Positions 9,146 through 14,946 of a stretch of 64,000 bases of DNA are shown here, in pieces. The notes under the pieces were generated by a model that saw nothing but the letters and a program-made list of their open reading frames with translations, ran no database searches and was not told the DNA's origin. The stretch covers positions 49,051-113,050 of the forward strand of contig JAZOVF010000008.1 in NCBI GenBank assembly GCA_045658565.1, in the 5' to 3' direction. The position numbers and the translations under genes were made by a program. Position 1 is the stretch's first letter. Each line of letters opens with the position of its first letter. The stretch is from Eubacteriales bacterium. Lineage in GTDB: Bacteria > Bacillota > Clostridia > Oscillospirales > CAG-272.

Positions 9146-9174
9146 TTGACATTTCGACCTAAAAGTTGTATAAT
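9146..9174 (+). promoter_or_regulatory. SigA-type promoter about 185 nt upstream of the first Cys/His-rich lipoprotein
   Basis: Exact TTGACA-17 bp-TATAAT. Confidence 0.78.
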
Positions 9175-9361
9175 TGCAGAAGAGAAGGTACACAGAGGTG
9201 TATTTTGCCTGTTTTTGTCATGTGCAAAGGTGTGAAAACTGTTTTTTGAAATTTTCGCCACTTTTTGAAAAACGTTTTTGCAGTGTGCAGAATATACTAA
9301 TGTGTGATTTTTCCAAAAACAAAATTTTTAAAAGAAGAAAGACTAAAGGAGAAAAATTACA

Positions 9362-11125
9362 ATGAGAAAAAACACACTCATTAAACTGTTGGCAGTTTTG
9401 GCAATGTGCTTTTTGATTGGCGCGGCTCTTGTTTCCTGTGGCGAAGGCGAAACAGAGGATGTTGCTGCTAAGACTATTGTAGGTGTTGAGTTCGTTGGTA
9501 ACGACCTTGTTATCACCTATGATGATGGTACAAAGACTACTACCGCTATTCCCGAGGCTGCGGTATGCCAGCATGCTAACCCCATTCAGATCGTTACCGA
9601 GGCTCACAAGCTGGAAAACGGTGCGCTCACCAAGGACGAGGTTCTCTATGTTTGTAACGACTGTGCAAGTGCATGGGTTGAGTACAAGGAGGGTGAAACC
9701 CTTATCCACGTAGCAAGCGGTGACAAGGTTGTTAAGGCTCCCACTTGTGTTGATGACGGCTATTCTGCTGACATCTGCCTCCACTGCGGAGTTGAGTACA
9801 ACGTAGTTGTTACCGAGGAGACCACTAAGACAGGTCACACTCTCGGTGCTGCATACTTTGCAGAGGGCGATGCTTGCGTAGGCGGTAAGACCGCTAAGGA
9901 TTGTGCAGATTGCGATTACATCGAGTATACCGATGTTGCTGCTGCTGCAAACGAGGGCTTTGACGGCGTACATAATGTTGCTACTTGGAACACTGTTACC
10001 GCTCCTACTGCTACTACCGGTGGTGTTGTTGAGGGCGTATGTACCGTTGCTAGCTGCGGTAAGACCATAACTAAGGAAATCGGCGCTCTTCCTGATAAGG
10101 CTGATAATAATGAGTACGATTTTGATGAAGCAGATTCCGACATGTTCGTTGAGTGCGGTGATGCTGCAAATTACATCTATGTTCACAAGGCAACCGGTCT
10201 TGAGTACAATGTAACCAAGGCTGGAGACGATGTTGTTAAGCACGAGCTTAACGGCAAACCTATGACCTCTGTTGATCAGGTTGAGGCAGGCAAGGAGTTT
10301 GAGACCGCTTACTACTATGATGAGGTTCCCGGCGTTGTTCTCTTCGCTAACCATCCTCTCGTATGTGACGAGGCAGTTCTTGCTCACTTCAGGTGTACAG
10401 CTGTACATGACGGCGGTAAGTGCGATAAGGATATTTCCGTATACGTAAAGGCTAGACACACTACTGTTGGTGCTACTTGGGTAGGCGTTCCCGGTGAAGC
10501 TCCCACTTGTACCGAAGCTGGTAAGGAAACCACCAACTGCACAGCGTGCGGTACTGCACAGTACAGAGAGGTTTCTGCTCTTGGTCACACCTACACCTAC
10601 GTTGATGAGACTCTTTACACCGACGCTAAGGACGGTACTGTATTCAACACTGCTGACTATGCTAACGTAACCGATTCTAAGAAGCCCTACCACAGAGATT
10701 TCTGTGACAACGGCTGCGGCACTGTTGCATACCGCGTAGTTGCTGATTATGCAGTTGACGTTACCACCGATCCCGCTACCTGCCAGGGCGACGGAGAAGG
10801 CAAGATTTCCTGGACCAAGTGCGATGGCACTAACGGTGCAGCTGTTGTTGTTCTTCCTCAGTTCGCTCACAAGACTCTTGTAAACGGCGAGAAGGTTGCA
10901 ATTGTTGAGGGTAAGGAAAACATCAAGATCAAGATCTACAACGCAGATCATGCTGATTACAAGGATCTCGTTAAGGAGCTTGACAACGTAGCATTCTCTA
11001 CTACCGAGGCTGTTCTCGGTTACATCCACTGCGAGTGCACTTGCAAGGATTGCGATGCTCACGACGTAACTGTTTGGGTTCAGAAGCTTGGCGCTGATGC
11101 TCCCGCAATGGTTGACTTCCAGTAA
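9362..11125 (+). CDS. Cys/His-rich repeat lipoprotein (587 aa), function unknown
   Basis: Signal peptide with lipobox ...AALVS-C; about 28 Cys in recurring (A)PTC..G....CxxC....GH units; acidic; codon usage resembles pnp and rpsO; AAGGAG RBS. Confidence 0.85.
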   Translation: MRKNTLIKLLAVLAMCFLIGAALVSCGEGETEDVAAKTIVGVEFVGNDLVITYDDGTKTTTAIPEAAVCQHANPIQIVTEAHKLENGALTKDEVLYVCNDCASAWVEYKEGETLIHVASGDKVVKAPTCVDDGYSADICLHCGVEYNVVVTEETTKTGHTLGAAYFAEGDACVGGKTAKDCADCDYIEYTDVAAAANEGFDGVHNVATWNTVTAPTATTGGVVEGVCTVASCGKTITKEIGALPDKADNNEYDFDEADSDMFVECGDAANYIYVHKATGLEYNVTKAGDDVVKHELNGKPMTSVDQVEAGKEFETAYYYDEVPGVVLFANHPLVCDEAVLAHFRCTAVHDGGKCDKDISVYVKARHTTVGATWVGVPGEAPTCTEAGKETTNCTACGTAQYREVSALGHTYTYVDETLYTDAKDGTVFNTADYANVTDSKKPYHRDFCDNGCGTVAYRVVADYAVDVTTDPATCQGDGEGKISWTKCDGTNGAAVVVLPQFAHKTLVNGEKVAIVEGKENIKIKIYNADHADYKDLVKELDNVAFSTTEAVLGYIHCECTCKDCDAHDVTVWVQKLGADAPAMVDFQ

Positions 11126-11212
11126 TTTTAAACAAAGAACGTAAGACTAAAGGATTTAATCCTTGAAGTCGAATTTTAAGAAATCGAGTGAAGTAATATT
11201 CTCCATTCCTCC

Positions 11213-11275
11213 ACTTCTTATTTAAAAGGCGGGCGGTCGCCTTGCGGCCGCCCTGCTAATGACTTTATAAGAAGT
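11213..11275 (+). other. GC-rich intergenic stem-loop between the two lipoprotein genes
   Basis: Inner stem gggcggtcgc/gcggccgccc inside outer stem acttcttat/ataagaagt; no U-tract. Confidence 0.6.
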
Positions 11276-11353
11276 TGCGTTATGGTACAAAGGTCCTGCT
11301 ATGCATTTTTTTGGAATGCATAGTTTTGACATATTATTTAATAGGAGGGAAAA

Positions 11354-13984
11354 ATGAAAAAACATTTACTGAAACTCTTGCTGTTATGTTGTACCGGAAT
11401 ACTCGCTCTTAGCTTATTTGCGTGTGTTCCGACAACAGAACAGTATAAGGTGGATTTCATTGTTGACGGCCAGGTGTACAAGTCCTGCACAACAAGCGGA
11501 AATTCCCGAGTAACCCTTCCCTCTGATCCTACTAAGACCGCCTATGTTTTTAAAGGCTGGTATTTTGACGAGGGCAAGTGGACAAAAGAGTTCAACGCCC
11601 ATTCATTTGAAAAAGATCCAATAGAAAAAGACGTTAATATTTACGCAAGATTTGAGCTTGATAAGACCCACACCTGTAACAAGTTGTGGAAAATAGAGCT
11701 CCAGGCTACATGTCAGTCCGAGGGTAAAAGGGTGCAGAGATGCTCTTATCCCGAGTGCGCTAAGGTTTACGCAGTTGAAACGGTGCCGATTAAGGTTAAT
11801 AGCAACGGTGAAGTTGTTCACACAGGTGCTACTGATACGGTAAAAATTATCGGTACTCCGGCTACATGTACAACAGAAGGCTCGTGTACAGAGATGTATT
11901 ACTGCTCTTTGTGTAAGGCAAAGACAGGAGAAGAGACCTTTGAAATTCCAGTTGATAATAACGCACATAAGTTTGTTAATGACGATATAAACCACACAAA
12001 TCTTGTAAGAGCAGATGATGTGTTTAACTTTAGTGCACAGTGTGAATTCTGTCCGTTTAAGGTTAATTTGGCGAATGTTGATGTAACCGAGAAGATTGAC
12101 GAGGTTGCAACCTGTACAACTCCCGGAAGCAAGTATTACACCTGCTCTGTATACGGTATTGAGTTTACATCGGCAAAGGAAGAGATTCCTGCCAAGGGTC
12201 ATTACATAAACGGTGTTGCGATAGAAGATAAAGTTTACAGTGAAAAGACTCACAGTAAGATATTCTCCAAGATAACTCTTATCGACGATCCTAATCGCGA
12301 TGAGACCTGTTGCGAAACAGCAGCTGATGGGGATCGAATTATGCAGGGAGTATATAAATGTGATGTCTGCCACGAAAATGACTATATATCAGTATTTAAA
12401 CCCCATAAGAATGGAACGTGGGTAAAGACTGCTAATGCCGAGTGCTATAAGCCCGGCGAAGAGATTCTTGCTTCCTGCTCTTCTTGCGGAGGTAAAAATT
12501 TAACTAGAGAAATTCCCGCAACTGAGGCGCATGTAGACGGTGAAACAATCCTTGTTAAGGACGGAGCAAAGTTCCATCTTGCCGTAGCCTGCACTAAGAG
12601 ATCCAAGGGATGTACTCACATTGATATAATGGTTGAAAACGTTGAGGTGGAAGAACAAACTATAATCAGCAAGGATTGTACCGTTGATGATGTTATAAGA
12701 TACACCCACGTTACTGCATCGGGCAAGTATTCATATGATGAGCCGATAGACCATGGCAAAGGACATTTCTTGAACGGTGTTCGTGCGGAGACTCTTCAGG
12801 ATCAGGCCGGATGGTTCGATTATCGTTATATTGATAACGGAATAAATGTCTTTGACAATATTTATCTCACCTGTGACCAAGAAACATACGGTATGTATGT
12901 ATGCGAATCCTGCAAGCAAGATATACTTGTAACAGTATACAGACCCCACTCCGGTACATGGGTAACAACAAAGGCTCCTACCTGCACATTTGAAGGTATA
13001 GCAAACTTCTACTGCGATATTGAGGGATGCACCTACGGTGACGATAATACTGTAACTAAGGTTGTTGAACCTCTTGGGCATGATTATGACTATACACTCG
13101 GAATTGAAAATGATAGATTCTTGTTAAACGGTAAGTGCCACTGTAATGAAACAGAGGTTATCAAAAATGTTTCTGTAGATGTTTCGATTACAAAGGAACC
13201 CACCTGCAAGGAAGCAGGAACAATTGTGTACACCTGCTATCATAGTGGTGGCGTTTATGAGATGTCAGAAGCTATTCCTGTTATACCTCATGCTTTAGGT
13301 AACGAGCTTATCGATGAAGGTGCAAGACTTGAATATGTAAAGTATGTAAAGAACGGTTCTGTTAAACTGAGATTTGCTAATATTAGCTGCACAGATTCTG
13401 TCGATGATACATCTAATGATATGTCTGCATCTTATATATGCACAGAGTGCGGTGATACAGTTGCGGTTAAGGTTTATAGACTCCACGACGGTGAAACTAC
13501 AATAATCGATACAGACAGCTCACCTTGTGTAATCTCCGGCAAAAAGCAATTTGCTTGTAGCTATTATGGTTGCACATATGTGTCTGAAACCGACTACAAC
13601 AAGGATGAGCATAACTACGTTGCAACTCGTACCTCGAATCCCGATGGCACACAGACAATTTTTGCTAAATGTAACGTTGAGGGTTGCGGAGATACAAAAA
13701 CCTACTCCGGACTTACATCGGTTGATGTTGATATTAAGACAGAGGCAACCTGTTCGTCAATGGGCTATGTTGAGTATACATTCTTCTACGGTGGAGAAAC
13801 TTATACTCTCGGAGCTGTAATTGACAGAGGAAACCACGTGTTGAATGGTGTTGACTTTGAAACTCTTATGGTCAACGGTAAGCTTCCTGACGACATAACC
13901 GAGTTTGTTATAGTTCGTGATGCATATTACTTCATGTGTGAAGAGTGCGGAATGCATGTCAGAGTAGACGTAGCAACAAACTAA
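11354..13984 (+). CDS. Cys/His-rich repeat lipoprotein (876 aa) with N-terminal InlB B-repeat-like domain
   Basis: Lipobox ...SLFA-C; YKVDFIVDG...LPSDPTKTAYVFKGWY...IYARF resembles the Listeria-Bacteroides repeat; about 47 Cys, mostly within four roughly 180-aa super-repeats; AGGAGG RBS. Confidence 0.87.
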   Translation: MKKHLLKLLLLCCTGILALSLFACVPTTEQYKVDFIVDGQVYKSCTTSGNSRVTLPSDPTKTAYVFKGWYFDEGKWTKEFNAHSFEKDPIEKDVNIYARFELDKTHTCNKLWKIELQATCQSEGKRVQRCSYPECAKVYAVETVPIKVNSNGEVVHTGATDTVKIIGTPATCTTEGSCTEMYYCSLCKAKTGEETFEIPVDNNAHKFVNDDINHTNLVRADDVFNFSAQCEFCPFKVNLANVDVTEKIDEVATCTTPGSKYYTCSVYGIEFTSAKEEIPAKGHYINGVAIEDKVYSEKTHSKIFSKITLIDDPNRDETCCETAADGDRIMQGVYKCDVCHENDYISVFKPHKNGTWVKTANAECYKPGEEILASCSSCGGKNLTREIPATEAHVDGETILVKDGAKFHLAVACTKRSKGCTHIDIMVENVEVEEQTIISKDCTVDDVIRYTHVTASGKYSYDEPIDHGKGHFLNGVRAETLQDQAGWFDYRYIDNGINVFDNIYLTCDQETYGMYVCESCKQDILVTVYRPHSGTWVTTKAPTCTFEGIANFYCDIEGCTYGDDNTVTKVVEPLGHDYDYTLGIENDRFLLNGKCHCNETEVIKNVSVDVSITKEPTCKEAGTIVYTCYHSGGVYEMSEAIPVIPHALGNELIDEGARLEYVKYVKNGSVKLRFANISCTDSVDDTSNDMSASYICTECGDTVAVKVYRLHDGETTIIDTDSSPCVISGKKQFACSYYGCTYVSETDYNKDEHNYVATRTSNPDGTQTIFAKCNVEGCGDTKTYSGLTSVDVDIKTEATCSSMGYVEYTFFYGGETYTLGAVIDRGNHVLNGVDFETLMVNGKLPDDITEFVIVRDAYYFMCEECGMHVRVDVATN

Positions 13985-13996
13985 TCAAAATATCTT

Positions 13997-14026
13997 AAGC
14001 GGTCTGCAAAGAGCAGACCGCTTTTT
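13997..14026 (+). terminator. Intrinsic terminator after the lipoprotein pair
   Basis: aagcggtctgc-aaaga-gcagaccgc-ttttt. Confidence 0.88.
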
Positions 14027-14126: not shown

Positions 14127-14946
14127 GTGAATGTATTAGAGCATCAAATTGTATTTAAATATCTTAAAGAAAAATTTCCTCATCCTAAAATCGGCGGTCC
14201 AGCAATTGCAACCGTTTGGCATGAGGAATTCTGTGAGCTGTTCTTCTCTTCTATAAGAAATGCGGGTATAACCGCGGACTATATTTCCTACCACCGCTAC
14301 GTCAAGACTGTTGAGGACTTTTTCGAGTCGGTTGACAGATTTAACTTGTGGCTTGAAAAATACGGCTACGGCGATGTTGAAACCCATTACAAAAAGTGGA
14401 ACTACGTCAGGGGCTGGCAGGCAGAGAAGTTTATGCATACAATAGATACAATAAAGGGGCTAAAGGTTTCTTCTTTTGTTGCAGGTGTAATGTCCGCTCT
14501 TCAGTACAAGAAAATCGATATGATGATGTACTACGAGGGCAGACCCTCGGCATTCTGCGGACTCGGGGACACTCATACCTACCGTTCCCACAAGACTTTT
14601 TATACCTTCCTTGCCTTTGCGCATCTTCGTGATATAGGCACAGCGGTTAAAACCGAATGTGACGAATACCTCTACTCCGCAGCCGCTAAAAATGAAAATG
14701 AGGCGGCTGTTCTCCTGACTTACTTTAATGAGGCAGATGATGCCAAAAAATATAAGAAAACAAAGTTATCGCTTAATAATATCCCTATAAAAGAGGGAGA
14801 AAAAATCAAGGCAGAGGTTCTTGTGATTGATGAAAATCATAATCTTGAGCCTGTGATGGAAGAGATCTTTACTTCTTTTTGATTCAGCTATTTACCTTGA
14901 TATGCCTATTTATACCACTTACCTTGTAAAGCTTAGCAAAATATAA
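14127..14946 (+). pseudogene. Degraded C-terminal fragment of a GH39-like (clan GH-A) glycoside hydrolase
   Basis: KYLKEKFPHPKIGGPA...DYISYHRY...ETHYKKWNY, where EWN is expected. The N-terminal half and RBS are missing. A frameshift near 14880 separates ...EEIFTS from ...AIYLDMPIYTTYLVKLSKI* ending at 14946. Confidence 0.65.

Follow-up and report, generated by a model that had tools for sequence, protein, structure and literature searches.

What kind of surface protein is built almost wholly of modules bearing cysteine and histidine, and what might hold such a chain together? This question is raised by two adjacent genes, here called A and B, in a 64,000-nucleotide stretch of the genome of a Eubacteriales bacterium (GenBank assembly GCA_045658565.1, contig JAZOVF010000008.1; G000:C8:49051-113050 in our numbering). 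We refer to the whole stretch as the window, and its positions are used below unless a contig is named. Gene A (9362..11125, + strand) encodes a 587-amino-acid (aa) lipoprotein with the lipobox LVSC26, 28 Cys (26 in the mature part) and 18 His, and gene B (11354..13984, + strand) encodes an 876-aa lipoprotein with LFAC24, 47 Cys (44 in the mature part) and 25 His. Both proteins probably are membrane-anchored, wall-spanning surface rods stapled by zinc, with A made abundantly; the zinc, the shape, the role and the abundance are the parts of this account that we infer.

Two related lipoproteins rich in Cys and His

A first-pass annotation of this DNA had described a pair of adjacent, related Cys-rich lipoproteins with a shared set of motifs and no recognizable catalytic domain. 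Its coordinates, residue counts, motifs, spacing and claim of homology all hold: the open reading frames (ORFs) of A and B have exactly the ends that it assigned, the HxLNG-type motifs fall at A294 (HELNG), B283 (HYING), B471 (HFLNG) and B828 (HVLNG), and runs of the form APTC/EPTC...G...CxxC...GH begin at A127, A381, B542 and B616. Comparison of the two families by hhalign gave a probability of 99.7% and an E-value of 2e-26 over 364 columns (A97-517 against B229-658).

Pfam and NCBIfam searches likewise found no catalytic domain in A or B. The sole Pfam domain across the pair is Flg_new, an InlB B-repeat domain, in B (PF09479, 32.2 bits against a cut-off of 27; aa 31-98, 11444..11647, + strand). 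It lies beside the membrane anchor, is absent from A, and also matches internalin B chains in the PDB (E 3e-7 with the single sequence, 1.5e-9 with a profile). The Cys-rich parts of both proteins belong to no Pfam or NCBIfam family, the match to DUF5558 at E 0.016 being below threshold, and PDB sequence searches with the single proteins returned just the InlB repeat and an aldolase match due to chance. Among the ORFs of the genome, phmmer detected no close paralogue of A, and the B query gave only a match at the level of Flg_new.

Proposed Cys3His sets are conserved across both families

A was aligned with 16 full-length relatives (30-60% identity) taken from 50 matches, and B with eight (26-71% identity). 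All of these relatives come from uncultured Clostridia or Eubacteriales, and any name they carry is ‘hypothetical’. By a hand count from the list of invariant columns, 21 of the 26 mature Cys of A are invariant in 17/17 sequences, compared to 28 of 535 non-Cys mature positions, and the Cys pattern therefore is not a product of chance.

When assigned by residue spacing, the Cys of A fall into seven sets that each hold three Cys and one His: 69/98/101/H116, 129/139/142/H159, 172/181/184/H204, 227/232/265/H294, 335/345/354/H366, 383/393/396/H409 and 448/452/474/H503. A Cys cluster, C557-C564/H567, stands at the terminus. Among the 28 positions of the seven sets, 24 are kept in 17/17 orthologues, and nearly all positions of the approximately 12 sets proposed for B are kept in 9/9 members of its family. 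Moreover, the number of mature Cys is odd in 12/17 members of the A family and 4/9 of the B family. The odd counts in 12/17 A orthologues argue against an all-disulfide design.

A widespread module of about 40 residues

The genomes of relatives hold large secreted proteins or lipoproteins with regular tandem arrays of a 39-41-residue module, whose consensus is H-x2-3-W-x6-PTC-x3-G-x5-C-x2-C-x12-GH. A profile of 40 positions was built from 34 seed instances, two of them from gene B and none from A. Among 1,835,955,588 representative proteins this profile matches 68,618 at E<=1e-3, 39,467 at 1e-10 and 12,105 at 1e-30, and a single protein can hold as many as 93 copies. An alignment of 5,176 instances was drawn from the 149 proteins with the highest scores, and 2,802 instances with more than two gaps were dropped to leave 2,374 (2,341 unique). 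In the unique modules conservation is 99% for H1, 91% for C14, 99% for G18, 100% for C24, 95% for C27 and 97% for H40, figures that lean towards this pattern because the seed selection required it. Exactly three Cys are present in 2,041 of the 2,374 modules (86%), two in 257, four in 65, one in eight and five in three.

Both proteins under study are recognized by the profile as whole sequences (A, E 1.8e-16; B, E 4.4e-28). Three modules of A, all outside the seed, match the module hidden Markov model (HMM) at independent E-values (i-E) of 1.9e-9, 4.3e-11 and 1.5e-6, and hhalign joins the module alignment to the A alignment with a probability of 96.3% (E 1.7e-9). The copies of Pfam and NCBIfam that were searched contain no model of the module, even for the canonical arrays. 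A search of the literature on zinc-ribbon, Cys3His or cysteine-rich repeats in Clostridia or Firmicutes found no description of it, and a term search of a fibrillar-adhesin survey (PMC9210967) gave no mention. The ESM Atlas returned only ‘hypothetical’ clusters, in which 12-40% of the members bear assorted zinc-finger Pfam names that serve as leads only.

The taxonomic distribution of the module is patchy. It was matched in 30 of 41 genomes of near relatives, with full-length A in none of the other 40, and in six of 301 genomes drawn evenly across the phylum. Elsewhere the arrays are joined to CotH, BspA-type leucine-rich repeat (LRR), cohesin plus SLH, CAP or Big_2 domains, as expected of a stalk. 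The genome that contains the window has nine module-bearing ORFs, mostly lipoproteins, plus one more diverged lipoprotein on contig C36, which places A and B within a larger group of surface lipoproteins with Cys/His modules in the organism.

Module proteins outside the window include those at G000:C8:140608-146391, C8:147853-148785, C38:1614-3962, C36:15957-18248 and C14:8057-8728. One module protein of the same genome reaches 1,927 aa, and two have C-termini that by eye are BspA-type LRRs. A mini-module with two Cys and two His, H-x3-C-x2-CG-x7-9-H, lies between copies of the Cys3His module in L002:811-3231 and in G000:C8:147853-148785.

Predicted structure and a related rod-like domain

[quoted passage not shown] Fold searches of these models yielded no credible match. 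Foldseek returned nothing at E<=1e-3 for A196-412, and the 67 rows at this threshold for whole A were dismissed since every one has a template-modelling (TM) score of <=0.11 and a root-mean-square deviation of >=34 Å.

Sequence comparison was more informative about the module. Against the PDB, its profile finds 9qa6_A, labeled ‘IgA protease’, at E 2.2e-11, far above other sequences, in residues 859-906, 939-978 and 1103-1135. The 9qa6 construct starts at A31 (PMC12237041), so that these stretches would correspond to approximately 889-936, 969-1008 and 1133-1165 of the protein, that is, to subdomains I and III of domain ZBD1 and subdomain III of ZBD2.

Two papers from 2025 describe these domains of the Thomasclavelia ramosa M64 immunoglobulin A (IgA) protease. 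Artificial-intelligence models depict ZBD1 and ZBD2 as elongated strings of three-stranded sheets in which putative tetrahedral zinc sites occupy the interfaces between subdomains, ZBD1 measuring about 110 Å for 129 residues (PMC12237041). The putative sites are of the 2His+2Cys kind with one 3Cys+His, and there are no disulfides among 24 Cys (PMC12237041). The same domains are named CTD2 and CTD4 in PMC12415215, where they are termed metal-associated periscope domains and where CTD2 appears by small-angle X-ray scattering (SAXS) as a fully extended rod. A term search of PMC12402451 gave nothing further on the ZBD/CTD domains.

The module thus is of a kind that first came to notice in 2025, in a single enzyme. 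Several earlier expectations can be judged in this light. Repeated Cys3His sets arranged as beads on a string had been foreseen, and the near-invariant sets, the predominance of modules with exactly three Cys and the match to rod domains all agree with this view. A proposed survey with a repeat HMM indeed revealed a widespread module, while the fold search proposed with it identified no fold. The statement that no characterized protein carries the super-repeat needs qualification, as a related domain was described in 2025, through models and SAXS only; the HxLNG super-repeat itself was found in no library or paper searched.

Lipid anchoring

The signal peptide is the best-conserved segment of each protein. 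In A (aa 1-26; 9362..9439, + strand) the mean pairwise column identity of aa 1-25 is 0.94, compared to 0.41 overall, and in B (11354-11425) the pairwise identity is 0.75. The lipobox motif of A reads LVSC or LVAC in 17/17 orthologues. The LFAC24 of B has an atypical F at position -2; its orthologues show ITAC, MSAC or MYAC, and one of nine shows no lipobox. Conservation of this kind may reflect selection that acts on the export signal itself or the 5′ end of the coding region. Signal peptides resembling that of A also head distant HxLNG-type proteins of other lineages (P0020-26), and ones resembling that of B head P0059-67.

The genome encodes both lgt (PF01790, E 3e-67) and lspA (PF01252, E 6.5e-34). 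In this 97.8%-complete genome there is no match to the sortase family PF04203, neither A nor B has an LPxTG-like motif, and SLH domains are absent from A and B by Pfam and from the genome by PF00395. Lipid anchoring appears to be the main route of surface display in this organism, since penicillin-binding proteins are encoded but no sortase or SLH domain is.

The HxLNG super-repeat

Units that begin at HxLNG-type motifs align end to end with 19-28% identity. Each is 175-210 residues long, a length that results from an insert of about 45 residues, the HxLNG insert, among the modules. Within a unit the insert is followed by a C-x9-CxxC-strand-H module, a canonical W..PTC..G..C..C..GH module, a C-x1-6-C strand element and a degenerate TC..G module that extends to the next HxLNG. 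The last two elements and the next His together again supply three Cys and one His.

B contains three full units and a truncated one; A has a single full unit and one that is truncated. All features listed here are on the + strand. A has a canonical Cys3His module at aa 116-159 (9707..9838; H116, C129, C139, C142 and H159, all five in 17/17 orthologues; i-E 1.9e-9) and a degenerate module at aa 204-242 (9971..10087; i-E 1.5e-6) in which the first Cys is replaced (APTATTGG). Unit alignment defines its full unit at aa 294-502 (10241..10867), in which the HELNG insert leads into two Cys3His modules, then a C-x3-C element and finally a degenerate module, with the match at A379-409 (i-E 4.3e-11) inside it. 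A truncated unit at aa 503-587 (10868..11122), supported by unit alignment and conservation, ends in the CxCxCxxC..H cluster.

In B a three-module N-terminal array (aa 106-282, 11669..12199), delimited by conservation and by module HMM matches at 112-144, 167-191 and 251-283, precedes unit 1 (aa 283-470, 12200..12763, beginning HYING), unit 2 (aa 471-645, 12764..13288, HFLNG) and unit 3 (aa 646-827, 13289..13834, HALGN). Unit alignment and conservation support all three units, and module HMM matches also support the first two. A truncated fourth unit (aa 828-876, 13835..13981), placed by unit alignment, begins HVLNG and ends CEECG...VDV. Lipoproteins of the HxLNG type occur in other lineages too (for example P0020-26 and P0059-67), some of them with collagen repeats. 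The super-repeat was not found in the family libraries or literature searched.

Expression signals and a conserved leader RNA

Gene A is preceded by a sigma-70-type promoter, TTGACA-17-TATAAT (9146..9174, + strand), that matches the consensus at 12/12 positions, and a 5′ untranslated region (UTR) of about 180 nucleotides (9181..9361, + strand; start deduced from the promoter) that ends in an AAGGAG ribosome-binding site (RBS), invariant in the alignment of five loci. The -35 and -10 elements, the transcript start region and AAGGAG are conserved in 5/5 syntenic loci. The UTR has a fold z-score of -1.9, and the RBS region is unpaired in its minimum free energy (MFE) structure. The codon adaptation index (CAI) was computed with 14 ORFs of the ribosomal-protein cluster as reference and ranked among 1,218 long ORFs; it is 0.797 for A (98th percentile), 0.806 for pnp and 0.633 for B (73rd percentile). 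The perfect promoter and pnp-like codon usage noted in the first-pass annotation are thus borne out. Promoter, RBS and CAI together point indirectly to high expression of A.

The segment ahead of B is of a different nature. Positions 11173..11353 (+ strand, about 180 nucleotides) are almost invariant in alignments of the five loci, although flanking synonymous sites are saturated. The MFE of this leader RNA has a z-score of -4.5, and 0/200 shuffles are equally stable. In the consensus fold UUCCUCC pairs with GGAGGGA, the RBS of B, and a second helix between ACUUCUUAU and AUAAGAAGU encloses a GC-rich hairpin. In two loci the distal hairpin has another sequence, its structure being retained through three compensatory pairs. 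The leader probably is a translational operator or riboswitch-like element that limits B.

Searches for relatives of these RNAs gave little. Rfam had no match to the leader or to the UTR of A at the gathering threshold or at E<=10, except for an irrelevant long non-coding RNA row (E 1.3) in the latter. A BLAST-type search of the genome and 40 relatives found no second copy of the leader (two short chance-level matches), and a pattern of its 19-nucleotide core occurs in 17 metagenome stretches, none related to it. The conserved leader was not found in the libraries or literature searched.

Rapid divergence in a conserved locus

The gene order pnp-A-B-x-esterase-aaRS, where aaRS is an aminoacyl-tRNA synthetase gene, is kept in 4/4 related loci from metagenome-assembled genomes. 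Across these loci pnp retains 97.2-98.6% amino-acid identity and the aaRS 89.5-96.7%, compared to 37-59% for A and 37-71% for B. Nonsynonymous divergence (dN) is 0.32-0.66 for A and 0.20-0.67 for B. Ratios to synonymous divergence (dN/dS) are 0.30-0.42 for A, 0.15-0.19 for B and 0.02-0.23 for all flanking genes, values that are rough because dS is near saturation. A and B appear by these measures to be among the fastest-evolving genes of an otherwise conserved neighborhood.

A proposed zinc-stapled rod and its alternatives

The account that we favor would explain these features as follows. Each rod would be a long run of small three-stranded beta modules, with three Cys per module, the first following ‘PT’ and the others forming a CxxC knuckle, and a His at the module boundary completing the set. 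The four ligands would clamp one Zn2+ at the joint of successive modules. Zinc might thereby take the place of a hydrophobic core or disulfides, which would suit a reducing, anoxic habitat. About seven Cys3His sites plus the terminal Cys cluster are predicted for A and about 12 sites for B, with every third or fourth module remodeled around the HxLNG insert of approximately 45 residues. Given the N-terminal lipid anchor and a genome without sortase or SLH anchors, the rods would start at the membrane, pass through the peptidoglycan and expose a variable surface. At the published value of about 0.85 Å per residue (110 Å per 129 residues), the upper bound of their reach would be about 48 nm for A and 72 nm for B (560-850 residues), enough to cross the wall. 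A would be plentiful and B less so, with translation of B held back by pairing of the leader with the RBS. Fast divergence would fall on the exposed residues and spare the ligands and the signal peptides, a pattern expected of an adhesin or coat that faces pressure from phages or the host.

Several observations weigh against this account. No head or ligand-binding domain was identified in A or B, which leaves ‘adhesin’ and ‘coat’ as guesswork. With the full-length profile of A, the best PDB match is an RPA12 zinc ribbon at E 0.12 and 9qa6 is not reached; the link of A and B to 9qa6 therefore runs through the module profile, in which 2/34 seeds are from gene B itself. The seeds of that profile were chosen by a regular expression demanding H, C, G, C, C and H, and the conservation sample covers the best-scoring proteins only. 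The zinc sites of the IgA protease are themselves predictions, ‘pending experimental validation’ in the words of that paper (PMC12237041). Some sets are incomplete, with H294 of A kept in 11/17 orthologues, H156 of B in 3/9 and the first Cys of the fourth set of B unclear (1/9). A and B themselves carry even numbers of mature Cys (26 and 44), and the estimates of divergence are blunted by a pS of up to 0.76.

Disulfide, filament and redox explanations nevertheless are less likely than a zinc-stapled rod. The even Cys counts of A and B would suit metal-free disulfide knots like those of EGF or thrombospondin type-1 repeats (TSRs), by which the proteins would be oxidatively cross-linked extracellular repeats, but the odd counts in most of the A family speak against such a design, and we regard it as distinctly unlikely. 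A somewhat less unlikely possibility, still one that we doubt, is that A and B are ligand-binding adhesins in which the HxLNG inserts are the working parts and the Cys/His modules mere spacers. The insert does set A and B apart from ordinary module arrays, the insert-bearing A196-412 has the highest model confidence (pLDDT 89.6), and the mature part of B is conserved best in its last HVLNG segment (0.61 at aa 826-850). In other proteins, moreover, arrays stand like stalks in front of CotH, BspA-LRR, cohesin/SLH and CAP domains. However, the insert of A is conserved no better than the remainder (0.32-0.49 at aa 301-350), the insert has no fold match, and the gene neighborhood suggests no ligand.

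The first-pass annotation had favored a filament with a major and a minor subunit, and had offered metal storage or electron transfer as functions. That A and B form one non-covalent or covalent surface filament would fit their adjacency, their homology, their synteny in 4/4 related loci and expression signals that are high for A and lower for B. But each has its own lipobox and hence its own membrane anchor, the genome yielded no sortase, and LPxTG-like motifs are lacking in both proteins. PMC12415215 argues that full coordination of the Cys/His sites in the related domain leaves none free for metal-bridged oligomerization. We consider a filament very improbable. The proposal that the Cys3His sites bind iron, or form a surface metal store or electron conduit, seems more remote still. 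In its favor are the many sites per chain, rubredoxins among the weak PDB matches of the module profile (E 0.12-1) and an NCBIfam RubredRD match in one array protein (E 0.016). Against it, there is no conserved heme motif, the lone CxxCH of B being kept in 3/9 orthologues, no redox partner gene lies in the conserved neighborhood, and tetrahedral structural Cys/His sites are typical of zinc. A spacing of about 35 Å is too far for electron hopping. The sites would be about that far apart if the published rod geometry holds (three sites in about 110 Å, PMC12237041). Neither storage nor electron transfer found support in our analysis.

Implications

Among the findings presented here, the module-only lipid-anchored proteins with an HxLNG super-repeat, the scale of the family and the leader RNA appear to be new, in that none was found in the libraries or literature searched. 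The module occurs in 68,618 matching proteins, yet in the literature that we found it appears only for a single enzyme, as a ‘novel metal-binding fold’ that is unverified. Because A and B are almost wholly module, they are suited to testing zinc staples against disulfides or hydrophobic cores in the rigid extracellular rods of anaerobic Gram-positive bacteria. If zinc-stapled rods are the correct explanation, very many ‘hypothetical’ surface proteins of the gut microbiome would become annotatable, and surface display would be tied to the zinc supply of the gut. With its conserved flanks, fast-evolving coat genes and fixed signal peptides, the locus can reveal which positions are structural and which exposed. 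Apart from the proteins, the leader RNA that precedes B is a candidate for a regulatory element.

A bolder generalization, which we put forward as speculation and consider doubtful, is that zinc-stapled HxLNG rods constitute a new ‘all-stalk’ class and the dominant, fast-evolving coat of small-genome gut Clostridia that lack sortase and SLH anchors. The leader RNA would then set the ratio of A to B and may sense a ligand, possibly the needed metal, and the module would be a major extracellular zinc fold of anaerobes, a counterpart to the disulfide-rich EGF and TSR repeats of oxic life.

Additional features of the locus

An antisense ORF of 614 aa (9218-11062, - strand) lies opposite A and is longer than A. 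It was rejected as a gene because its codon usage is poor (CAI 0.559 compared to 0.797 for A), it has no homologue support, and it most likely is an artefact of the codon bias of A. This ORF can oust A in naive longest-ORF gene calling. Downstream of B a GC-rich, terminator-like hairpin (13997..14023) was listed by the scan on the - strand; on the + strand the hairpin is followed by TTTTT. A further ORF of 251 aa with a GTG start (14127-14882) is kept in 4/4 syntenic loci at 77-86% identity.

The single CxxCH of B, CDVCH at aa 336-340 (12359-12373), is of the heme-c type. It probably is a chance occurrence, as its His is kept in just 3/9 orthologues. Repeated CxxCH motifs, the mark of multiheme c-type cytochromes, are not seen in either protein, with none in A and one in B.

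Comparison with known systems

The closest known relatives of A and B are the ZBDs of the IgA protease. By sequence they are made of the same module of about 35-55 residues and carry Cys/His quartets that include the 3Cys+1His type. Two modules of 9qa6_A have the first Cys replaced (PATATT form) as in A aa 204-242, and the 2His2Cys sites reported for the ZBDs resemble the mini-module H-x3-C-x2-CG-x7-9-H. Like A and B, whose shape is predicted, the ZBDs are all-beta, elongated, extracellular on a Gram-positive gut bacterium and have no known fold match. However, the protease uses five modules to hold an enzyme off a sortase-anchored C-terminus, whereas A and B have a lipid anchor at the N-terminus, consist almost entirely of roughly 8-13 modules without any enzyme or head domain, and have the HxLNG insert interleaved. 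Zinc is predicted in both systems.

The canonical arrays in large proteins of Clostridia (for example L004, L009 and P0081-P0229) use the same module, often after a lipoprotein or other signal peptide. They form regular repeats of 39-41 residues that are followed by CotH, BspA-type LRR, cohesin plus SLH, CAP or Big_2 domains, whereas A and B are diverged, irregular and without a terminal functional domain. The G5-E periscope proteins SasG and Aap, to which CTD2 and CTD4 have been likened, are surface rods whose beta sheets form a single layer and lack a hydrophobic core, and zinc in Aap bridges protomers through His/Asp/Glu sites with no intramolecular Cys/His staple (PMC12415215). These proteins are sortase-anchored and have no sequence relation to A or B.

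Classical zinc ribbons such as the N-terminus of NrdR and the C-termini of TFIIS and RPA12 have two CxxC knuckles per domain and are intracellular and nucleic-acid-binding. By contrast, the module of A and B has one CxxC knuckle, a lone upstream Cys and a boundary His, and occurs in tandem outside the cell. No zinc-ribbon Pfam model reaches threshold on A, B or the array proteins.

In their pattern of evolution A and B recall the variable lipoproteins of the Mycoplasma Vsp/Vlp type, where a conserved signal peptide likewise precedes a fast-diverging mature part. The Vsp/Vlp proteins form multigene, phase-variable families in wall-less bacteria, whereas A and B are encoded by single-copy genes with syntenic orthologues, and their bacterium has a cell wall.

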